From: a virus
Strand: one strand, 5' to 3'
Length of the DNA stretch: 64,000 nucleotides
IMG/VR virus record: IMGVR_UViG_3300044712_000083
Span: 1-64,000 of that record
The stretch's first letter is position 1. The number at the start of each line of letters is the position of its first letter. Shown in pieces: positions 5,266-43,419 of this stretch. Under the pieces are notes generated by a model that ran no database searches, was not told the origin of the DNA, and saw nothing but the letters and a program-made list of their open reading frames with translations. Position numbers and translations under genes: made by a program.

Positions 5266-6128
5266 TGCGTATAGTCAAAGAGAATACCAAGATTCTTCAC
5301 ATGTATTTTGATTCTGTTGATGATTTCTTTCAACATAGTGATGCGAAATTACTACAGGAAAAAGGTGTAAGCCATTTACCTAGTAGTAATCAGCGTCACA
5401 TTAGAGAAATCGCTAGAGGAGATGATAAAAGTTGGAGATATGCAGAAGAGAAGAGCAAGGATACTTTTGAGAAGACTAGATTCGATCCTACAAAGGGTAA
5501 AACAATGTGTGCAGATGCTGTCAAGAAAACTATGGCTGATAAGAGCTATAAGAAATTGATGGCTAACGCTATGACATATCGTAGAAAGCCCAAGTTTCAG
5601 GATGTAGGATCTAGACTCTCTGTCCCACGAGCTATAGCTGGTGAGGATAAATACTTTGTTAGTCTCAAAGCTGCAAGAAAACCAACAGTGAAGATTGCAA
5701 TTAACATTTGTGGGAGTGCAAGTGTTAATGCAGCAGCGTTTGCAAGAGTGGCACAAACAGCTATTCCAACCATTTATGCGTTGGAACAAGCTGGTATCAC
5801 CACTGAAGTTTATTATTGTGCGTTTTCTACAAGAACTCACAAAGGCTATACTCACAGTCAACTATCTGTAAAAGTTAAATCAGCCCAACAACGATTCTCC
5901 TGGACATTATTTGCTCCAGTGTTTTGTGTTGGTAGTTATAGAGATAACATCTTTACAGCATGGAGTAATTGTGATATAGATACAGACAGCGGATTAGGTT
6001 GTCCAATGAATGAATCAGATATTCAAAGTAATAATAACTTTGGATATGATTCTGTGATTGGTCTTAATGCTGTAGGTCCTGTAGAGAATGTAGGTTCTAT
6101 CTTTAATAAGATAAAACTAACGAAATAA
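5265..6128 (+). CDS. VWA/CobT-like partner of the AAA+ ATPase
   Basis: TAATG-coupled to the ATPase; KIAINICGSAS MIDAS-like strand; ALEQAGITTEV. Confidence 0.6.
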   Translation: MRIVKENTKILHMYFDSVDDFFQHSDAKLLQEKGVSHLPSSNQRHIREIARGDDKSWRYAEEKSKDTFEKTRFDPTKGKTMCADAVKKTMADKSYKKLMANAMTYRRKPKFQDVGSRLSVPRAIAGEDKYFVSLKAARKPTVKIAINICGSASVNAAAFARVAQTAIPTIYALEQAGITTEVYYCAFSTRTHKGYTHSQLSVKVKSAQQRFSWTLFAPVFCVGSYRDNIFTAWSNCDIDTDSGLGCPMNESDIQSNNNFGYDSVIGLNAVGPVENVGSIFNKIKLTK

Positions 6129-32288: not shown

Positions 32289-32978
32289 TTATCTATTGTT
32301 TAAAATAAAGTTAAGCACTTCTGGTGATATAAACCAACTATCGTGCATTGATATTTCAGGAATTACATGGATGTATCCTTTGCTCTTTAATAAATCAATC
32401 ACTGGTTGTTTAGTGTGAGTATCATTATGTTCTATTGTCAATACATTAAACTTACGAGAGAAATCATAAGCTTCTAAAATCAATTGCTCTGTCCCCTCAG
32501 TGTCAATAGATAAATAATCTATAATAGCGGGACAATTGTGTTTATCTAACAGATCATTAAGTGAAATAGTTTTAACTGTATAAGTTTCACCATGTGTTTT
32601 TCTATGATCACTCCAGTAATCTCCAACAGAATGCTCAGTTATTCCTGATATACATGGCATGTTGGCAACTTGTGTAAATTCTATTTCATCTCCTGTTATA
32701 TCAGATACACATAATGTATCAATTGTAGATGTTCTTATTCGTTTGAGATGCTTATTATAATACTCAAGAGGCTCAACTAATAAACCATTCCAATTATAAT
32801 ATGTTTCAAGAAGAAATGTATTACTTAACATCACTCCATCACAAGCTCCAAATTCTAAGAAGTATTTAGGAGATTCTCCCAAACAAAACAAAGCAAAAAC
32901 ATCTTGTTTCAATTGAGAATATGATTCATAGTTTTTACTAAATGCTAAAAACTTATCACCAATTACCTTATCAATCAT
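32289..32978 (-). CDS. FkbM-family methyltransferase
   Basis: SQ..QD, FLEFGACDG..SNT, W.GLLVEP, IDYLSIDTEG.E, TIEHN. Confidence 0.88.
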   Translation of the reverse strand: MIDKVIGDKFLAFSKNYESYSQLKQDVFALFCLGESPKYFLEFGACDGVMLSNTFLLETYYNWNGLLVEPLEYYNKHLKRIRTSTIDTLCVSDITGDEIEFTQVANMPCISGITEHSVGDYWSDHRKTHGETYTVKTISLNDLLDKHNCPAIIDYLSIDTEGTEQLILEAYDFSRKFNVLTIEHNDTHTKQPVIDLLKSKGYIHVIPEISMHDSWFISPEVLNFILNNR

Positions 32979-34225
32979 ATCTTTTTGGTATTATCTGTAG
33001 TCCAAACTCTACTAAGTAGATGATTAGTGAAACAGTTGTTCATTTTCTCTAGCAACATTAGTAAAAGCTGTTTATTAGGTTGAATGTTAAAATACTTTAA
33101 CAAATCAATGGCAACTTCTATTGCCTCTTGTTGAACTTTTACAATCTGTAAATCGTGTTCACAAGATAATCTTTTTATTCCTGAATCATCCCAGCTACTT
33201 ATAGCACCTACATCCAATAGATTTAGTTTCTCACAAGCATCTGTTTTAACATTCAGCCATTCTTCAAAACCAGATGCATTTCTAGCAATAGAACTATAGT
33301 TCATCGATACTGGTCCAGTTAGATAGATCATTCCAGGAGTTGGTAAGTTTGTTCTTATTAAGAATGATTCTAAAGACTTACCACTTCCTTGAACATCAAC
33401 TATTGTTCTGCAACCATCTATGATTTGTTCTTGAAAGTATTTTACAAATGCATCGCTTGCATCTGCATAACATTGTCTAGATGTTTGATACTCTATAGCA
33501 TCTCCTCCAACAACAGCTTTATATATAGTTAGCCAGTTTGCAGAAGTTCTATATGTAAAAGCAAGAGGTTCATCAGGAAGTTCCAACGATGCTAGTGCTA
33601 AAGTTGGAATGTTTAAACCAGCTTGATCATTCCAAATTAGTTTATTAGAATCTCTATAAGGACAACTAAGTCTAGTCATTCTCATCCAACAAGCTAGTTC
33701 TACATCTAGTTTAGATGTTTCTAATTCTACATCATTGAATGCGTGATCTGTATAAAACTCAACATTAATTCCCTTTTCTCTAGGAACTAACACATCTGAT
33801 CTAAGATTATCACCTACATGTAAGTCAGGACGTTCTATCTTATCCCAAATCCAACCATCCCATTTACCTCCCCAAGTTACATAAACTTTAACATCTTTAG
33901 TTAAACCACAAGATCTAAGTAAATCTGTTACTTGTTCTACAGAAAGATACATATCAGATACAATGATGTCTCCATCATTGACTCTATTCATGTTTTCTAC
34001 TATAGGAAATAGATGTTCTTTCTCAATCTGTAGTTCAATGTTCTTATCAATCCCTGGAAGACGATTGTAAATATCATCATATGTACCATTGGATTGTTTT
34101 TCTGCCTCTATTCTAAGCTCTGTAAAGTCTGAAATACCTAATTGTTTTCCTACTTCATTGAATACACTGTGAGGATGTACATATCTTCTAGCAATTAATG
34201 TATCAAAACAATCCCAAGATGTCAT
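32975..34225 (-). CDS. HAD-superfamily hydrolase of glycan-locus type
   Basis: SWDCFDTLIAR, VSDMYL, HVGDN..SD. Confidence 0.8.
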   Translation of the reverse strand: MTSWDCFDTLIARRYVHPHSVFNEVGKQLGISDFTELRIEAEKQSNGTYDDIYNRLPGIDKNIELQIEKEHLFPIVENMNRVNDGDIIVSDMYLSVEQVTDLLRSCGLTKDVKVYVTWGGKWDGWIWDKIERPDLHVGDNLRSDVLVPREKGINVEFYTDHAFNDVELETSKLDVELACWMRMTRLSCPYRDSNKLIWNDQAGLNIPTLALASLELPDEPLAFTYRTSANWLTIYKAVVGGDAIEYQTSRQCYADASDAFVKYFQEQIIDGCRTIVDVQGSGKSLESFLIRTNLPTPGMIYLTGPVSMNYSSIARNASGFEEWLNVKTDACEKLNLLDVGAISSWDDSGIKRLSCEHDLQIVKVQQEAIEVAIDLLKYFNIQPNKQLLLMLLEKMNNCFTNHLLSRVWTTDNTKKI

Positions 34226-34857
34226 AATAGTTTTTTAATTATATCATTTAGATACATGTTATCCTCATGATTTGAATAATCGCCACCTTCATCCTGCGTA
34301 ACTGTTGTAAGATTTACAAACATTAGGTTTCTACCATTAATTAATCTATGTGATCGATAACCTGTTACGTAATGATGTACTGCAATTATTTTAAAATTGG
34401 TTGTATGTTTTTCAAAAAACTGAGATAACAATAAAGCATCCTTAATAGATGCAGTTATATCAGAGTCTTTATTTGGGTAGATTATTAAAAATGTTTTTTG
34501 TTCATCAGAAGAAAGTAGATCTCTGAATCTTTCTACACATCTTTTATAATAATTATAGGCATCATCATCCATCATTGGATCACGATGCCTAAATATTATA
34601 TGCTTTTCAGGCTTTGGATTATCCTGTAATAACGGAGCATAGAAATCATGTTGACAACACTCGTGGTCATCCCAATGATTATCTATTTTACAATATTGTT
34701 CTCTATTAAGAAAGGTTTTAAAGTCATCCTCTATACAATGTTTGATCATTTCAGATCTACTATTCATCCAATCAAAGGGAAAAGATTCAACTTTTAGTCC
34801 TTGATATTTAAATATTGCAGCAGAATGGCAACCTTGTCCTAAAGAACAATACCTCAT
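34222..34857 (-). CDS. DUF1796 papain-like protein
   Basis: SLGQGC, SFPFDW, F.H, Y.RCVERF. Confidence 0.8.
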   Translation of the reverse strand: MRYCSLGQGCHSAAIFKYQGLKVESFPFDWMNSRSEMIKHCIEDDFKTFLNREQYCKIDNHWDDHECCQHDFYAPLLQDNPKPEKHIIFRHRDPMMDDDAYNYYKRCVERFRDLLSSDEQKTFLIIYPNKDSDITASIKDALLLSQFFEKHTTNFKIIAVHHYVTGYRSHRLINGRNLMFVNLTTVTQDEGGDYSNHEDNMYLNDIIKKLL

Positions 34858-35078
34858 TAGTTACAACCGTACTTACATTTCCCCATTTTAGCACCATTCT
34901 TAGCCATCTTAGTAGCACCTAGTTGCTTATCTTTTGTAAGAGAAGCTTTGCCTTTAGAACCAGCTAATGCATTCTTTTGTACTTTAGTGTACGCACCTTT
35001 AGGATCTACAGGTCCAACACGTTTTGTAGAGGCTGTCATTCCTTTAAGACTACCTCCTGATTTCTTTGCTGTTGCCAT
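34857..35078 (-). CDS. small basic protein
   Basis: Lys/Gly-rich; coupled stops and starts. Confidence 0.65.
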   Translation of the reverse strand: MATAKKSGGSLKGMTASTKRVGPVDPKGAYTKVQKNALAGSKGKASLTKDKQLGATKMAKNGAKMGKCKYGCN

Positions 35079-35084
35079 GATTAT

Positions 35085-35459
35085 TTATTTTTTAACTTTA
35101 CCACCATTCTTTTGGAAACCCATCTTGTTTCTTACAGGTGTAGGAAGTTTCTTTAAACCTGGTTTACCAGCAGGAACAGGCTTTAAAGAAGCACCATTTG
35201 CAGCTTTCTTAATCATTCCACCTTTTTTCATTGGTGATTTTTTAACTGCAACTTTGCTAACATTATCTCTTTTAGCATCTCTTGCTTTTTGTTCTTTTTC
35301 CATTTGAATAGTGGTTTCATAATTATCTCCACCACCTGGTGTACGAGGAAAACGTTTTTCATAAGACTCTGGATAAAAGTCTGCAGGAGTTTGGTAACGT
35401 TTAGCAGGTTTACTTTTAACTACAGTACCTGTTTGAGCTTTTTTAATTGCTTTTGCCAT
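35085..35459 (-). CDS. basic protein with KxGG/AxxG repeats
   Basis: AQTG, MKKGG, AANG, QKNGG. Confidence 0.7.
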   Translation of the reverse strand: MAKAIKKAQTGTVVKSKPAKRYQTPADFYPESYEKRFPRTPGGGDNYETTIQMEKEQKARDAKRDNVSKVAVKKSPMKKGGMIKKAANGASLKPVPAGKPGLKKLPTPVRNKMGFQKNGGKVKK

Positions 35460-35463
35460 TGTA

Positions 35464-35610
35464 TTATTTCTTTTTAGATTGAGCTTTAATTTTCTTTTCC
35501 TGCTTTAACATAGCAGCTGTAGGTTTCTTACCAGATCCCTTATTAGCACGGATGTTATCCCATAGTCCTCTACGAGATGTTGATCCGTCCTTACGTTTTA
35601 ACATTTCCAT
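35464..35610 (-). CDS. 48-aa basic peptide, GLWDNIRA type (not in ORF track)
   Basis: MEMLKRKDGSTSRRGLWDNIRANKGSGKKPTAAMLKQEKKIKAQSKKK*. Confidence 0.65.
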   Translation of the reverse strand: MEMLKRKDGSTSRRGLWDNIRANKGSGKKPTAAMLKQEKKIKAQSKKK

Positions 35611-35852
35611 TTGCGTAAAGATTTATTGATACGAGAATTAGGATCGTTAGCTGTCTTAGCAGACGTTAGTTTCTTTTTCATACCTGACATCCTAGCACAG
35701 AATGATTTCTTGCGAGGACCACCTTCAGGTTGTGGAGCTTTTAAACCAGGCTTACCTGGATTAGCTTTATTGTAGGATGCTCTACCTTTTGCGTTGAGGC
35801 CACCAGAAGGATTCTTACCTTCTTTTCTTTGCCATGCTGGACTTTTTGCCAT
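35598..35852 (-). CDS. DUF6321-like basic protein
   Basis: MAKSPAWQRKEGKNPSGGLN...RKKSFCARM...SLRKWKC. Confidence 0.75.
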   Translation of the reverse strand: MAKSPAWQRKEGKNPSGGLNAKGRASYNKANPGKPGLKAPQPEGGPRKKSFCARMSGMKKKLTSAKTANDPNSRINKSLRKWKC

Positions 35853-36150
35853 AGTTAGGATTTTCTCTGTGCCACTTCTTGACTGAAGCAACACCTTGTT
35901 TAACAGTTTTAGCTTTAGCTTTGTTAGTGAGATTGATTTTATCCCACTTACCTGCAGGAATACCAGCTGTATGATCTACAACTATATCTCCTTTATCACC
36001 TATCCCTCTATCGGTGGTCTTTTTAAATACTTTATGTGTTTGTCCGCCAACTTTAACAATAGCTTTACCACCGTTCTTTAGTGTAGAACCTTTAAACTGT
36101 CCTTTCTTTTTAATTAAAGGACCATCAGGAACGGGTGTAAACTTTTTCAT
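35815..36150 (-). CDS. basic hypothetical protein
   Basis: ORF containing LKNGG and IVVDH. Confidence 0.65.
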   Translation of the reverse strand: MKKFTPVPDGPLIKKKGQFKGSTLKNGGKAIVKVGGQTHKVFKKTTDRGIGDKGDIVVDHTAGIPAGKWDKINLTNKAKAKTVKQGVASVKKWHRENPNYGKKSSMAKKRR

Positions 36151-36857: not shown

Positions 36858-38216
36858 TTATTTAAAAACTTTTCTTTCATGCCACAACTGACCATAATGA
36901 GGCATGTTTCTATTATGGTATATAATACTAAAGTGATTATTTAATTTTTTTACAATCAGGGGTTTTTTACGTTTATCAACAATAAACATACCCATCATCT
37001 CAATATTATCCAATGTTTTAGTTTTACCAGATACACCGATGTAGATAGGAGATTTAGGATTATTATAAACAACCTCACAAAATGCACGTCCTAAAACACG
37101 AGGACCTGTTACATCTAATGTATTGAATCCATATAACTTATTATCAATATTATGTTTAGAAAGTTCTATAGCTCGTTTTACAATAACGTCTCCTGCTTTA
37201 CTACACATAAATGCATTATATAAAGCATTAGGAGCTTCAGGTGTATCCACTGCAAACACCCTATCCATGTCTTCAATAATCTCATCAAATGGTACTAATA
37301 TTACTTGAGAGAAATCATTGTAACATCCTCCATGTCTATGTAGAATCAAGTATCTCCAGAAATCAGCTTTGTATGCTGTAGGAACAAGACTATTATAAGT
37401 TGCTAAATATTCTTCACCATAGTAATCTCTGATGTAATTTTCACAATCTGCATCAGAGAAATAGAACAACTGATATCCAGGATTTTTTTCCATCATATCA
37501 TAATAGATGAGCTTCATCACATTAGGAAGAGCATCTTCAGACATAGGACCTGTTCTAAATATCCATTTAGGAATACCATCCTCTCTCCACTCTTTGCCTT
37601 TGAAATCTTGATATGTTCTTATAGGATTATACCATTGATTAGGTTTGTAGTATTGATTCATGTTAGTAAACTTTGGATAGATTCCATTGTTCTCTAATAT
37701 GTTAGCAACCATTACATCTTCTAATGGATACTGTTTACCATCTGCTTGAGCTATACATTCTATAGCTTTTCTAGAAACAATATAACTTAGTCCACCCTCA
37801 CACCAGTCAGAGATTTCACCTTCATAAGGTTTGTCATTCCAATAATGACCTTCACATCTTCCTATATGGTGATTACGATTAATCATGTGCTTACCAGCAA
37901 TCATTCCCATATAGTCTGTGAGTTCGAAATCAATCTCTTTAATAAGAGTCATATCCTCATCCAATTTATGGAAGTGAGTATATGAATCAAATACAGAGTT
38001 CTCACTGATAAACTTAAACATAGATGCTACCTTATCAGGAAGTCCGCAATAAGAGTCATCACAATTTAGTTTAATTACATCACCCTCATAAGAGTTATCT
38101 TCATATCCACCAACTACAACAACATAGTCAGTAAATGAGCTACTAACTTTATCTAGTGTAGCTTGTAGATTATCTTGGTGTGTGATAAATACTTTTAATA
38201 TCTTGTTGGTTTGCAT
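36858..38216 (-). CDS. bifunctional glycosyltransferase (GT31-like N-terminus + GT32/OCH1-like C-terminus)
   Basis: DSY.GLPDK, KLDED, GG.SY..S, EDVMV; then IPKWI, AYKADFWRY.IL...GG.Y.D, TGP..L. Confidence 0.85.
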   Translation of the reverse strand: MQTNKILKVFITHQDNLQATLDKVSSSFTDYVVVVGGYEDNSYEGDVIKLNCDDSYCGLPDKVASMFKFISENSVFDSYTHFHKLDEDMTLIKEIDFELTDYMGMIAGKHMINRNHHIGRCEGHYWNDKPYEGEISDWCEGGLSYIVSRKAIECIAQADGKQYPLEDVMVANILENNGIYPKFTNMNQYYKPNQWYNPIRTYQDFKGKEWREDGIPKWIFRTGPMSEDALPNVMKLIYYDMMEKNPGYQLFYFSDADCENYIRDYYGEEYLATYNSLVPTAYKADFWRYLILHRHGGCYNDFSQVILVPFDEIIEDMDRVFAVDTPEAPNALYNAFMCSKAGDVIVKRAIELSKHNIDNKLYGFNTLDVTGPRVLGRAFCEVVYNNPKSPIYIGVSGKTKTLDNIEMMGMFIVDKRKKPLIVKKLNNHFSIIYHNRNMPHYGQLWHERKVFK

Positions 38217-38221
38217 ATAGT

Positions 38222-38503
38222 TTATAATGTTATCTCAAAAGAAATAACAGCATTGGTTTTAATACTCTTACTCATGTTCAACTTAATCTGAAACTGATTA
38301 TGAAACTTAAACAGCTCCTCTATCAAAGCATTTGTATACTTTGGTAGAGAAGGTGCAAGTCTAAACGTATAAGATTTAGGATGTTTAGTTATTTCCATAG
38401 TTGATAACTCATCTACAGAATCGATAACACCTTCTAGATGTGCAAAGTATAGCTCATCATTATGGGGCATTATCTTTGGAAAAAACTTTTTACTAATTTG
38501 CAT
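38222..38503 (-). CDS. hypothetical protein
   Basis: Coupled ORF. Confidence 0.65.
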   Translation of the reverse strand: MQISKKFFPKIMPHNDELYFAHLEGVIDSVDELSTMEITKHPKSYTFRLAPSLPKYTNALIEELFKFHNQFQIKLNMSKSIKTNAVISFEITL

Positions 38504-38925
38504 TAGCTCAATGTTAGTAGGTATTTAGTTGTAGCTGCTTTTCCAGACAAGCTTTGAGCAACATTTTCAATGTCAGGCATATTGTTTGTAGCTCCGTAGT
38601 TCTGCAGTTGCTTAGCAAACGCCATTAACTCAGACACCACTTGCTCAGATACACCTGGAGCATAATCTTTCAATTGTCCTGGATTACCAATCTTAGCACG
38701 AGTACCTGAGTAGCCCATGATCTTCTCAATAATCTCATCTTTGAAATCAAAGACAGCATCGTACAATCCACCTAAAGCCTGGTGCTCTGCATAAGAACGT
38801 GTGGCCCAGTGCAAGTTATGTAGTTGTAGTTCAAAGTATGTTAGCTTTGTAGCAATAACATCAGGAGAAAGATCTCCTGACGCACTGCTTAGCATTTCTT
38901 GTGGGAATAATGATTTTAATGCCAT
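38503..38925 (-). CDS. Dps/ferritin-like (DUF5856-type) protein
   Basis: LHNLHW.T.SYAEHQAL..LYD.....D...E; YLLTL end. Confidence 0.8.
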   Translation of the reverse strand: MALKSLFPQEMLSSASGDLSPDVIATKLTYFELQLHNLHWATRSYAEHQALGGLYDAVFDFKDEIIEKIMGYSGTRAKIGNPGQLKDYAPGVSEQVVSELMAFAKQLQNYGATNNMPDIENVAQSLSGKAATTKYLLTLS

Positions 38926-38937
38926 GTTGTTTAAATA

Positions 38938-39402
38938 TTAGAAGCACTGAGTACAGCTGTAAATGTATGTAGCAGTTCCTCCAGTTGTATTCCAGTAGCA
39001 GTTAGAGTACTGCGGAGATTCCGAAAACAAAAGAGAAAAACCATAGACATTTATATTAAATGGAATAGTTAATGCAGCATCTTCCCAAAGAGTTGTCCAA
39101 TCTGCAAGAGTGCTACTTTGTGTATATCCAATAGAAGTCTGTGGGTTAATGTTATTACATGCATCTGAACTATTTGCATAACTTGTTATTACCCATGCTG
39201 TAGGTTGATTTCCACCACCACCACTGTGACTAGTTGATGTAGTTGTTGTACTAGGATTAGATCCTCTATAGTACATAGGAATTTCTCTCCAGTTACCATT
39301 CTTTGGTTTGGAGGTTCTAAACACAGGTGATCCTGATACTACACGACCTGTACCGTCAGTTTGCACATATGCTTTTAATTTTGGTGTTATATTATTTGCC
39401 AT
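38938..39402 (-). CDS. modular Thr-rich virion-associated protein, family A
   Basis: LKAYVQTDGTGRVVSGS...WREIP head, STTTTSTS linker, variable tail. Confidence 0.75.
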   Translation of the reverse strand: MANNITPKLKAYVQTDGTGRVVSGSPVFRTSKPKNGNWREIPMYYRGSNPSTTTTSTSHSGGGGNQPTAWVITSYANSSDACNNINPQTSIGYTQSSTLADWTTLWEDAALTIPFNINVYGFSLLFSESPQYSNCYWNTTGGTATYIYSCTQCF

Positions 39403-39423
39403 TTTCTATATCTTATTTAATTA

Positions 39424-39825
39424 TTATACACAGTTATAAACACTTAATACACCACCAGCATTAACTAAATACTTGGTCATAAGATCAGAAATAACCAATC
39501 CTGTTGTAACAGGTGTAGTTAGTGCACTATCAGTAAATACACTAATTCCTGCAGCTAATGTTGACGAAGATGAATAGAATGTTATGTTAGCTGAAATTGT
39601 AGTATTACATGCATCAGTTACATTATCCCAGTAGCCTTTAGTAAATGATGTAGGGGCTGCTGTGGTAGTTGTTGATGTAGTATCATTACAACAGTTATAA
39701 GTAGGAATTTCAAACCAACGTCCAACACGTGGTCTGTTCTTTCTCAGAATCAGGCTGCCTGCAACAACCCTTCCGCTACCATCGTAGCGAACAAATGCTT
39801 TTAATTTCTTCTGATTATTAGCCAT
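39424..39825 (-). CDS. modular Thr-rich virion-associated protein, family A
   Basis: LKAFVRYDGSGRVVAGS...WFEIP head and TTSTTTT linker. Confidence 0.75.
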   Translation of the reverse strand: MANNQKKLKAFVRYDGSGRVVAGSLILRKNRPRVGRWFEIPTYNCCNDTTSTTTTAAPTSFTKGYWDNVTDACNTTISANITFYSSSSTLAAGISVFTDSALTTPVTTGLVISDLMTKYLVNAGGVLSVYNCV

Positions 39826-39830
39826 TTTGA

Positions 39831-40850
39831 TTAATAGTTTAAATTGTATTTTTCTTTAAGTTCTATAAGTTTAGATACGTAGAAATGAGTACCAAGTCTC
39901 TTGCTACGCTCATCAGTATATACTGTCATCATATGAGGATCTGTAAAAGGATCTGTTCCACCGTGGTATTTACCTTTATAGAATGTTGGAACATCACCCA
40001 TGTAATCACCAACCATTCCAGCATTATGAAATATACCTAACTTATCAACTTTTTCTATAGAATCAGAAGCCCAAGAGAATTCCATTTCAGGAATCACCTT
40101 TGTATCATCTCCTCTACGCCATAAGTTCCATAGAACTGCCCACATATCTGCACACCAACTTTGAAAACCTTTATCTTCACTTTCAAAGAATTCTCGATTA
40201 ATACTCATTAAATAAACTCTAATAGAAATACAATCTTCCATTACATGTTTCCAGAAGTCTGCATCAATATTCTTTAATAGATATTGAGCTCCTCCTGAAT
40301 CATCATTAGATTTTTCAGCAATGAAACGTGTAATACCACAAAGATTTGTTGTCTCTTCTAGAATATCACGTTGTTTGTATTCTTCTAGTTTATCAGGTAG
40401 AACATCTCTTTCTTTACTATCAAAGTAACGAGCGTTGATGTAGCTATTAGTATCTGATAAATAGTGTACATCATCATCTACATACTGATCAATGTTGAAC
40501 TTCTCTGTAAAGTATACATCACAATCACAATAGAACAATGCTTTTTCTTTCATCTCAGGATGATCCTGGAAGTAACGCATTAATGTGTATGGACGTAAGA
40601 CAGAAACGTAGATTCCTAACATCTCACTGATTGTATTATCTTCATCCTTATAGAAAGCAAACTCTGCTTCTGGATATAAGTCTACAATCTTTTGCCATTT
40701 GTCATTAGGCTCTCTGAAATGTGGAGTAAAGACTAGCACAATTGCTTTGTCTGAATGTCCTAGCTTTCTTAATGATTCTAGCCATAAATGCACTTGCCAT
40801 GTAAAATATACATCGTCTGGCTGTGCACAGATAAATTTAAGATCCCTCAT
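39831..40850 (-). CDS. GT-A glycosyltransferase resembling peptidyl-serine galactosyltransferase / HPAT (GT96/GT95)
   Basis: YFTWQ (cf. YFDWQ), LRP (cf. NKP), DCD DxD motif, WCADMW (cf. WxxEMY), late His. Confidence 0.65.
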   Translation of the reverse strand: MRDLKFICAQPDDVYFTWQVHLWLESLRKLGHSDKAIVLVFTPHFREPNDKWQKIVDLYPEAEFAFYKDEDNTISEMLGIYVSVLRPYTLMRYFQDHPEMKEKALFYCDCDVYFTEKFNIDQYVDDDVHYLSDTNSYINARYFDSKERDVLPDKLEEYKQRDILEETTNLCGITRFIAEKSNDDSGGAQYLLKNIDADFWKHVMEDCISIRVYLMSINREFFESEDKGFQSWCADMWAVLWNLWRRGDDTKVIPEMEFSWASDSIEKVDKLGIFHNAGMVGDYMGDVPTFYKGKYHGGTDPFTDPHMMTVYTDERSKRLGTHFYVSKLIELKEKYNLNY

Positions 40851-40876
40851 GTAGTTAGTTGTTTTATTTTTTAATT

Positions 40877-41680
40877 TTATACAGATCCTACTTGTAATGA
40901 TCCTTCATATCCTACAAATGGATTAAGTGTAGAGTAATTAGCTCCGCTGTTTGTAGCATTATGACCATTACCACTATTGTCAGTTAATTCTGCAGTGATG
41001 TTTGTTCCTTGGAAGATTAATAATTTAGTAGTAGGTAGAGCAGCTAACGGTGCAGTTGGTACAGATCCACTAAATGGTGCTGTATACACTGCAGAATCTG
41101 TCCATCTAAAATTGCTTAGATATCCATTTATGTAAGAGTCTGGCTCATTACCATATCCAATGGTTAATGGTAAGCCTGAGCTAGATATAGATGTAGACCA
41201 TGATGATGTAGCTAATTCATAACCATCAATATACATATACACTAAACTACCATTACCTACAATAGCAATGTGATGCCAACCTCCTACTAAGTTGATTCCT
41301 AAGCTACCAGGAGTTCCTGCTATTAGTGGACTACCGTTGCCCCAGAAGTAAATAACAGAGGCACCACCTTCAATAGAAATAGCGTTAGGAGCAGGATATG
41401 CACCAAAGCTGTAGACACGTGGAAATCCATTTGGATTAGCCATGTTCAAGAAGAACTCAATTGTAAAGTCTCCTGAAATATCAAAGTCCGTACTAGCAGC
41501 GATGCCTATATTGCCAGGAGGCGTTGGAGCAATTGTAGTAGTTGTAGTAGTAGTAGGATTTACATACACAGGATTATTATACATCACACGTGTAAGACTC
41601 TCCAATTGCTTAGAGATGTCCCAAAGCAATGCTGCCTTAGTGCTAGATGGTTGTCCTATCTGTTTTGAAGGTATTGCCAT
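40877..41680 (-). CDS. modular Thr-rich protein, family B, with LamG/ConA-like domain
   Basis: MAIPSKQIG..LLW.ISKQLE head, TTTTTTT linker, DFTIEFF...WHHIAIV...YIDG...L.IG. Confidence 0.8.
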   Translation of the reverse strand: MAIPSKQIGQPSSTKAALLWDISKQLESLTRVMYNNPVYVNPTTTTTTTIAPTPPGNIGIAASTDFDISGDFTIEFFLNMANPNGFPRVYSFGAYPAPNAISIEGGASVIYFWGNGSPLIAGTPGSLGINLVGGWHHIAIVGNGSLVYMYIDGYELATSSWSTSISSSGLPLTIGYGNEPDSYINGYLSNFRWTDSAVYTAPFSGSVPTAPLAALPTTKLLIFQGTNITAELTDNSGNGHNATNSGANYSTLNPFVGYEGSLQVGSV

Positions 41681-41684
41681 GATC

Positions 41685-42182
41685 TTAAGGAGTATATGAT
41701 GGTAATGTAAATAACTTTACTGTATATAACACTTGAAGTTGAGTAACGTCAATGTCTTCACCAAATGAAAAAGATACCAATTGATCTGTTACTGAAGTTT
41801 GAATACCAGCTGCTGATTCATTAGATCTATTATTCTCACCCTGTAAATTTTTCGAAAAAATTCCAGAGTTTGCACCAAACCACAAAGTGCCTGTAGAATT
41901 ACCAAATACAGGATTAGAAGTATTAGCAATCATTGAATATTCAATAATTCCTCCTGATGATTGAGATAAGTCTACTGTAAGAAATGGAGATCCATCCTGT
42001 AACCCAATCCAAGCTCCTGAGAATGTCTCAATCTTAGCACCAGCGTTATCACCACTTGATACGTTTAATAATGTCTTCTTACTATTATAAGTGACGCTTG
42101 TCAAACTCTCTAACTGCTTAGAGATTTGCCACAACAGATTTTCTTCTGTTCCCCAACCTACTTGTTTAGATGGTATAGCCAT
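41685..42182 (-). CDS. modular protein, family B
   Basis: MAIPSKQVG..LLWQISKQLESLT head with an unrelated C-terminal domain. Confidence 0.75.
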   Translation of the reverse strand: MAIPSKQVGWGTEENLLWQISKQLESLTSVTYNSKKTLLNVSSGDNAGAKIETFSGAWIGLQDGSPFLTVDLSQSSGGIIEYSMIANTSNPVFGNSTGTLWFGANSGIFSKNLQGENNRSNESAAGIQTSVTDQLVSFSFGEDIDVTQLQVLYTVKLFTLPSYTP

Positions 42183-42201: not shown

Positions 42202-43419
42202 TTAATTTGTAGTTATAAGTGCTCCTCTTGCTTGAAGAGTTGCTTTGTCTATTAATCCTTGTCCTGTTGGAGCTGCGTTTGTTCCACCATCTAGTACTAC
42301 ACTATGACTTGGTCCAAATAACGTTGTACCATTTGTACCATCTAAGCTTACAAGTAATGCAAGTATACCATTTACAGATGCCTCATCTAACGCATTAGAT
42401 GAAAAAACAATTTGAATATCGTCTATTCTTTTAATTGTACCAATTACACCTAGTGATAGTGATGTCAATAATGAATTATATGCTATTGAAATACCGCCAT
42501 AAATATTAACAACTGTTGGTGGAACTGTAATACTTGTTACTAATGTATTTTCTATTATAAATGAATTAATAGCAGTTACATTAGGAAGATCAATTGTTAA
42601 TGTTGAAATCTCATAATTTAGCTCAACACCAAAAGTAGTTACTAGAGGGAAAGATAAAGTTGTTCCTTTATATCCTATAAGTGTTAAATTAGTAACATTA
42701 GGAAAATTAGTTGAGGTTAAATCTGTAATAGGTACATTACTATTATCCATAACTAATCTAACTGTAGAAGCATCTGATGATACTGTTGTGAACAAAGGTG
42801 CATTAGCAATATCAAGATCAAATACTGTATCAGATAAAACAACACTTGTTAATGCTGGTGCATCAGTAATTACAAGAAGTGAGGTATATGATGGTAATGA
42901 TAAAGATTGTAGACTAGTAGCACCTTGAATAATACGATTTTGACCTCCTGCACTAACCAAATTAGGAGCACTAATTGTAGTGAGAGAAGTTAAATTATAA
43001 AATTCAAAATTACTAGCAATTGTAACAACTGATGGTAAATTTATTGTAGTTAAATTTAAATAATCAGTAAGAGAAATACTTCCTAATAAAGTTATTCCTG
43101 GGAATGTAATAGAACTTACGGTTTCTGCAGCACCATTACCAAGACTACCAGCATCTCCAGTAATATATGGAAGTGTACGACTCTGAGCAATTTTAGTTCC
43201 TCCTGTTGAAGCAGAATCTGCTGCAGTAATCTGAGTTAGAATATCTACAGTTAATGTATTGATAGCCCCCACTGTACTAAACGTAACTGTAGGATCCGCA
43301 GCAGGAATACCAGAAGAAATTATAGTGTCAACTACAGAATCAAGACTAAGCTCACCCTTTACAGGTTTGTCAGTGTTCTTCCATAAACCACTCTTAATAT
43401 AAATATTAGACTTAGCCAT
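42202..43419 (-). CDS. LRR / receptor-L-like solenoid fibre protein
   Basis: Repeated LTTI.LP.(L/V)..I units. Confidence 0.7.
   Translation of the reverse strand: MAKSNIYIKSGLWKNTDKPVKGELSLDSVVDTIISSGIPAADPTVTFSTVGAINTLTVDILTQITAADSASTGGTKIAQSRTLPYITGDAGSLGNGAAETVSSITFPGITLLGSISLTDYLNLTTINLPSVVTIASNFEFYNLTSLTTISAPNLVSAGGQNRIIQGATSLQSLSLPSYTSLLVITDAPALTSVVLSDTVFDLDIANAPLFTTVSSDASTVRLVMDNSNVPITDLTSTNFPNVTNLTLIGYKGTTLSFPLVTTFGVELNYEISTLTIDLPNVTAINSFIIENTLVTSITVPPTVVNIYGGISIAYNSLLTSLSLGVIGTIKRIDDIQIVFSSNALDEASVNGILALLVSLDGTNGTTLFGPSHSVVLDGGTNAAPTGQGLIDKATLQARGALITTN

Follow-up and report, generated by a model that had tools for sequence, protein, structure and literature searches.

A soluble glycosyltransferase family coupled to poly-threonine tracts of phage proteins and its probable role in cytoplasmic O-glycosylation

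The DNA analysed here, referred to below as the window, comprises positions 1 to 64,000 of the IMG/VR virus record IMGVR_UViG_3300044712_000083, and opens the genome of an uncultured phage, which is complete at 114,191 bp, with direct terminal repeats, a G+C content of ca. 35%, and replication, lysis, and giant virion genes of phage type. We describe a block of five minus-strand open reading frames (ORFs) at 38938-42182, spaced by 4-26 nt, in which an initial annotation, made from the letters alone, had placed a protein O-glycosyltransferase among poly-Thr modular proteins. The block is real: ORFs of 154, 133, 339, 267, and 165 amino acids were located on the minus strand. The 339-residue protein (39831..40850) is a predicted soluble glycosyltransferase of the GT-A fold, with a DxD motif (D109-C-D111), His275, and Lys292. 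It is followed by a 133-residue modular protein (39424..39825) and by its paralogue of 154 residues (38938..39402; 40% identity), each consisting of a ca. 45-residue head (head A), a Thr tract (TTSTTTT and STTTTSTS, respectively), and a Cys-bounded C-terminal domain. On the other side lies a 267-residue protein (40877..41680) with a 37-residue head of a second type (head B), a TTTTTTT linker, and a Laminin_G_3/concanavalin-like lectin (LamG) domain (PF13385, E 6e-13), which gives PHROG matches to baseplate wedge and virion structural families. The fifth protein, of 165 residues (41685..42182), also carries head B (65% identity over 37 residues) and has no Thr tract. The three tract-bearing neighbours are candidate acceptors of the enzyme and candidate virion proteins.

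The three mucin-like tracts reported in the initial annotation are thus present as described. Their codons are mixed (ACT, ACA, ACC, TCA, and AGT), which indicates selection at the protein level. Six of the ca. 118 genes of the genome bear such tracts; of the four genes closest to that of the enzyme, three are among them, an arrangement whose probability by chance is ca. 3e-4. The largest Thr-tract protein of the genome lies outside the window; it is a 2244-residue protein (genome positions 87177-93911) in which PHROG virion structural families are recognised (E 1e-92), and it contains about a dozen Ser/Thr runs, the longest of 38 residues. Two paralogues of ca. 210 residues (genome positions 97474-98088 and 98114-98752), ca. 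58 kb from the enzyme, contain Thr/Ser runs of 20-32 residues. Since the tract-bearing neighbour proteins are mutually unrelated apart from the tract, and since a genome may hold several unlinked tract genes, action in trans on a tag is favoured.

In an AlphaFold2 model of the 133-residue protein (overall predicted local distance difference test score, pLDDT, of 58), the head was modelled with three strands (pLDDT ca. 85) and the Thr tract was modelled as disordered (pLDDT ca. 40). When this model was compared with viral models using Foldseek, one homologue alone was returned (Virus NIOZ-UU157). Head A has two Cys residues at invariant positions (CC) just ahead of the Thr tract, and is restricted to this phage group. 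Beyond the five-ORF block lies an adhesin-like BspA-type leucine-rich-repeat (LRR) protein of 405 residues without a Thr tract (42202..43419, minus strand; Pfam LRR_5, E 4e-7). That the heads are conserved and the binding domains (LamG, BspA-LRR, and Cys-bounded) exchanged suggests docking modules that would show adhesin-like domains on glycosylated stalks.

No match for the 339-residue enzyme was found in Pfam (E <= 0.1), NCBIfam, or PDB sequence searches. It matches phrog_4417, a PHROG of unknown function (E 1e-51), and public records name members of the family either "hypothetical protein" or "prophage pi2 protein 34". The motifs YFTWQ, LRP, DCD, and WCADMW, noticed when the sequence was first inspected, were all found in the protein and are all kept across an alignment of 57 relatives, whose consensus reads YFxWQ, RP, DxD, and GFQSWCADMWAVLWNLW. 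An AlphaFold2 model built with these relatives (pLDDT 97.4) has a Rossmann-like alpha/beta/alpha GT-A core; in this model, D109-C-D111 comes after strand 104-107, and H275 sits in strand 273-275. The DxD motif and the C-terminal His are invariant among the 57 relatives, and likewise among 28 relatives, and no substitution of D109, D111, H275, K292, Y81, Y137, Q189, or Q230 occurs even in relatives with as little as 19% identity. Judged by this invariance of catalytic residues, the enzyme appears to be catalytically competent.

The top structural matches of the model were retaining GT-A enzymes (glycogenin, Skp1 AgtA, UGGT, GlyE, and PBCV-1 A64R), several of the best being protein glycosyltransferases, and the nearest folds are of GT8 type. 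By analogy with these folds, the mechanism is probably a retaining one. Similar GT-A folds also include LgtC, WbbM, and TarP, which act on lipopolysaccharide (LPS) or teichoic acid. No stretch resembling a signal peptide or a transmembrane segment was found in the enzyme or its neighbours (maximum Kyte-Doolittle 19-residue mean, 1.46), in agreement with what had been noted for the neighbours. We conclude that the 339-residue protein belongs to a large phage family without a name, and that it is a soluble GT-A glycosyltransferase dependent on a metal (DxD/His). A grouping with DNA- or LPS-modifying enzymes, which the initial annotation had regarded as fatal to its proposal, was not observed: the nearest folds are GT8-type, with several protein-acting enzymes, and genes for hydroxymethyl-pyrimidines are missing. 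Searches of the complete genome gave no Thymidylat_synt, Tet_JBP, or DNA_methylase match, the Tet_JBP result being a weak negative, as control genomes gave no match either.

The assignment to the plant HPAT and SERGT1 enzymes made in the initial annotation fared less well. The Pfam HPAT family (PF23452; gathering cut-off, 23.9 bits) did not match the window enzyme or any of 20 relatives tested one by one, and a six-frame search of the whole genome with the PF23452 model at E <= 10 gave no match. It reached E 0.012 in two of the 57 relatives, where it ranked first among families, and among the 30 named ESM-Atlas clusters that lie nearest, 22 carry its label on 10-58% of their members. PF23452 is, through these weak matches and language-model neighbours, the named sequence family nearest to the phage enzyme. 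We consider a remote relationship to HPAT to be possible; membership is not indicated, and the SERGT1/HPAT label is weak. A search for longer homologues returned solely phage and bacterial fusions. By sequence, the enzyme does not fall into GT8 either, PF01501 (Glyco_transf_8) being missing even from the weak matches of the 57 relatives.

The association between the enzyme family and poly-Thr was followed in other phages. Close relatives comprise 80 IMG/VR loci that encode enzymes of 65-83% identity. In most of them, one to three head-A genes stand after the enzyme gene and encode Thr tracts of seven to ca. 50 residues. The C-terminal domains of these proteins are exchangeable and in some cases tandemly repeated, and some proteins consist of the head and the Thr tract and nothing more. 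The interval between the enzyme and the conserved DUF5856 gene (38503-38925), which corresponds to 38938-39825 in the window, is a hypervariable cassette site with conserved flanks in these loci; one to three head-A genes occupy it, with their C-terminal domains swapped, tandemly duplicated, or missing.

Members of the enzyme family were found in 77 isolate-phage records, mainly of Lactobacillus, Enterococcus, Staphylococcus, and Lactococcus phages. Twelve isolate phages with distant homologues (26-31% identity) were picked before their tract status was known. Poly-Thr was encoded within 6 kb of the enzyme gene in 10 of these 12 phages (phiFL1A, phiCTP1, iLp84, vB-SscS-F1, VPE25, MA9V-3, bIL285, 1706, Bromius, and TPWB06), which cover eight genera of mostly Gram-positive hosts. 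The tracts typically form C-terminal tails of major capsid and/or major tail proteins, or belong to small ORFs that abut the enzyme gene. In most of the ten phages the enzyme gene lies within the head or tail module; in phiFL1A and phiCTP1, for example, it has the tail-tube gene on one side and the tail chaperones on the other. In the enzyme-less phages phiFL3A, phiFL4A, and bIL309, which come from the same hosts and studies, no Ser/Thr run of at least five residues with at least four Thr was present in any frame.

In VPE25 (LT615366, locus 5750-5990), the stop codon that ends the putative major capsid gene is immediately followed, in a different frame, by an unannotated Thr-rich ORF segment. 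It contains three Thr runs with VKP between them, and has the look of an extension reached by programmed frameshifting, through which some of the capsid subunits would acquire a poly-Thr tail. The major tail gene of Arcanobacterium phage TPWB06 is likewise followed by an overlapping ORF rich in Thr (locus 5720-5926).

A second sample was drawn independently of the enzyme and consisted of 118 IMG/VR loci with nine consecutive ACN codons. The enzyme (E < 1e-55) was encoded in nine of them, where without exception the Thr-tract ORF abuts the enzyme gene upstream and shares its strand. When runs of nine CCN or nine TCN codons were sought in matched scans instead, none of 117 poly-Pro and 118 poly-Ser loci contained the enzyme (Fisher p = 4e-5). 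In a third lineage, a radical-SAM/SPASM protein follows the enzyme or forms one polypeptide with it, and a Thr-tract protein is encoded directly upstream in ca. 26 of 28 informative loci.

The IMG/VR loci of the latter type carry a triad made up of a Thr-tract protein, a glycosyltransferase, and a radical-SAM/SPASM enzyme of ca. 342 residues, the last two often being a single protein of 658-665 residues. Several IMG/VR loci outside this set have, abutting the enzyme, Thr-tract proteins that terminate in Cys motifs (CPTCP, CPACG), so that glycosylation may be accompanied by a second modification of the peptide. No radical SAM partner was found in the genome studied here, and so the triad does not apply to it.

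Co-occurrence of the glycosyltransferase with poly-Thr genes, which the initial annotation had put forward as a check, was thus found in independent lineages. Comparative genomics lends strong support to a functional link between a soluble phage glycosyltransferase and the Thr tracts of phage proteins. Our best reading, to which we assign a probability of roughly 65%, is that the 339-residue enzyme carries out cytoplasmic O-glycosylation of poly-Thr linkers. The observations on which it is built are the fold, the conserved catalytic residues, the lack of export signals, and the coupling to poly-Thr across lineages. According to this reading, the enzyme would act late in infection, in the host cytoplasm, and would move a sugar from a nucleotide-sugar to Thr hydroxyls of poly-Thr tracts in phage proteins. 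In the phage studied here, the tracts would be disordered linkers that join a conserved N-terminal head to variable adhesin-like C-terminal domains, and the outcome would be a mucin-like, protease-resistant, hydrated stalk or coat, whose glycan other glycosyltransferases of the same block may extend. We infer the acceptor residue (Thr), the priming rather than extending role, and the sugar. The broader proposal that poly-Thr is a portable, encoded glycosylation tag, read by one dedicated and as yet unannotated glycosyltransferase family in phages that infect Bacillota, Bacteroidota, and Actinomycetota, stands in our estimation at even odds. Were it correct, any phage protein with a Thr run, be it a capsid, tail-tube, fibre, or small adhesin protein, would be sugar-coated in the host cytoplasm, glycosylated virions would be common among phages and no peculiarity of the mycobacteriophages, and mucin-like stalks would separate the docking head from the exchangeable binding domains in the phage described here.

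Several observations weigh against Thr-tract glycosylation by this enzyme. Genomic association alone does not identify the acceptor atom. The enzyme family is missing from 109 of the 118 Thr-tract loci, and a Thr tract therefore does not require it. Some of the close relatives encode head-A proteins without a Thr tract. The Lactobacillus phages SAC12B and LP65 (Herelleviridae) encode the enzyme and lack any run of seven Thr codons genome-wide; their homologues form the deepest branches of the tree, with catalytic residues intact, and the acceptor of these enzymes may differ. Finally, the DNA of VPE25, which carries a homologue, has glycosylated (glucosylated) cytosines, a modification that has been attributed to a separate homologue of the T4 beta-glucosyltransferase (PMC4999554).

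The most serious alternative, although we regard it as unlikely, is that the enzyme glycosylates proteins away from the Thr tracts, or merely extends a glycan primed by a host or another phage enzyme, with the tracts serving as flexible linkers. Both the many Thr/Ser-rich linkers without an enzyme and the tract-less head-A proteins that adjoin the enzyme in some relatives fit this possibility, as does GlyE, a fold match of GT8 type that extends rather than primes in the pneumococcal serine-rich-repeat protein pathway. It does not, however, account readily for the tract being the sole feature common to capsid, tail-tube, fibre-like giant, and small modular proteins, nor for the several neighbours made of a head and a Thr tract only, and the association is specific to runs of Thr codons, not of Ser or Pro codons. 

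A somewhat less likely target would be a host envelope glycan or a lipid-linked precursor (LPS, capsule, or teichoic acid), modified, for example, to block superinfection or to promote release, with the neighbours being lectin-like. Against this, the enzyme has no membrane segment, and its family occurs in strictly lytic as well as in temperate phages, within late head/tail operons and not in moron or lysogeny regions. The substrates of LgtC, WbbM, and TarP, the LamG and BspA-LRR binding domains of the neighbours, and the presence of further glycosyltransferases in the window all speak for such a target, which would nevertheless leave unexplained both the specificity for Thr codons and the absence of tracts in enzyme-less phages.

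It is improbable that the adjacency is a by-product of recombination, with ACN runs acting as hot spots for a mobile glycosyltransferase cassette that has no functional link to them. The enzyme region is indeed hypervariable among close relatives, in which cassettes are swapped between conserved flanks, and tract lengths vary widely. Tracts are, however, found in several unlinked genes, up to ca. 58 kb away in this genome, and are absent altogether from enzyme-less phages of the same hosts; the mixed tract codons point to selection on the protein, and the invariant catalytic residues indicate that the enzyme, too, is under selection. Glycosylation of phage DNA at hypermodified bases as a protection against restriction, which phage glycosyltransferases that decorate 5-hydroxymethyl-pyrimidines and the modified cytosines of VPE25 bring to mind, is the least likely of the alternatives and was rejected for this genome because the complete sequence gave no match to a thymidylate-synthase-type hydroxymethylase, a Tet/JBP dioxygenase, or a C5 DNA methyltransferase, while the family sits in structural modules of ordinary temperate phages and VPE25 has its own enzyme for DNA.

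Further enzymes that might take part in Thr-tract glycosylation are encoded nearby. A two-domain glycosyltransferase of 452 residues (36858..38216, minus strand; Galactosyl_T, PF01762, E 8e-9, and Gly_transf_sug, PF04488, E 1.5e-8) is a possible glycan extender, and a weakly supported putative methyltransferase of 229 residues (32289..32978, minus strand; phrog_8156, E 4.5e-6) could methylate sugars; the window also encodes a GT2-like protein. Elsewhere, the enzyme family is fused to GT2, GT6, GT32-type, and methyltransferase (Methyltransf_24) domains, and in other phages a single polypeptide joins the family to GT2 and Gly_transf_sug domains. These fusions indicate oligosaccharide assembly, and extension of the glycan by other enzymes of the block is plausible.

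Encoded at 32975-34857 of the window are a 416-residue protein, which opens with the sequence WDCFDTL, a DxDxT motif of HAD-like type, and after it a papain-like protein (DUF1796). Both genes adjoin those of the putative methyltransferase and the glycosyltransferases, with which they may form a sugar-tailoring cluster. Four small, basic, very Lys-rich proteins (73-124 residues) are encoded in a row at 34857-36150; they may bind DNA or reside inside the virion.

The general view is that phage particles carry no glycans. In the papers cited, the experimentally demonstrated exceptions that are named are a few mycobacteriophages (PMC12363180, PMC11256854). If the family does glycosylate Thr tags, glycan coats would be expected on well-studied dairy and clinical phages (Lactococcus phages 1706 and bIL285, Enterococcus phage phiFL1A and VPE25-like therapy candidates, staphylococcal and Lactobacillus phages), as well as on abundant environmental phages. 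Such coats would matter for how antibodies recognise therapeutic phages and how these are cleared, for protease stability, for adhesion to mucus or host surfaces, for the reading of cryo-EM density, and for explaining discrepant masses in the proteomics of virions. The enzyme and its tag would also make a compact pair with which recombinant proteins could be O-glycosylated in the cytoplasm. Phages that can be cultivated allow a direct test of the prediction by standard methods.

The enzyme resembles several known glycosyltransferases, though in different respects. Its likeness to GT8-type enzymes (glycogenin, LgtC, and GlyE), to the GT24 enzyme UGGT, and to Skp1 AgtA is one of fold, sequence identity being just 7-11%; compared with GT8-type enzymes, the phage family has ca. 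80 more residues, including a helical insertion and the conserved QSWCADMW motif. HPAT (GT95) and SERGT1/SGT1 (GT96) are plant and algal enzymes that put the first sugar on hydroxyls of extended low-complexity tracts, such as the Ser-Hyp4 motif of extensin (Hyp, hydroxyproline), and HPATs are predicted to be GT-A-like (PMC8476585). The plant enzymes are, however, type-II membrane proteins of the Golgi, whereas the phage enzyme is soluble and without a signal, and they act on Hyp or Ser, while the acceptor proposed for the phage enzyme is Thr. The enzymes of capsid glycosylation in the chlorovirus PBCV-1 (A64R and the three-domain A064R) belong to a eukaryotic virus whose glycans are N-linked to Asn in atypical sequons, with no homopolymeric tag.

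Searches of the literature for phage poly-threonine glycosylation, HPAT in phages, and "prophage pi2 protein 34" returned nothing that links the family or poly-Thr tails to phage glycosylation. In function, the closest known system is virion glycosylation in mycobacteriophages, where O-glycosylation of Che8, Corndog, and Myrna virions has been demonstrated experimentally (Freeman et al. 2023, Cell Host Microbe 31:1216, as described in PMC12363180 and PMC11256854). The enzymes involved are different and unrelated to the present family: the Che8 proteins gp108-110 are of GT2, GT2, and GT25 type, and an hhalign comparison of the present family with Che8 gp110 gave a probability of 0.07%. The Che8 glycosyltransferase genes lie at the right end of the genome, whereas in most of the ten tract-bearing isolates the family described here is encoded inside the structural module; the capsid and tail-tube proteins of Che8 have no poly-Thr tag; and glycosylation has been shown by experiment in Che8, while it is predicted for the present system. 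What the two systems share is the proposed coating of capsid and tail proteins in the cytoplasm by phage glycosyltransferases, and the involvement of methyltransferase domains, since Che8 gp108 combines GT2 with Methyltransf_24, a domain to which relatives of the enzyme described here are also fused.

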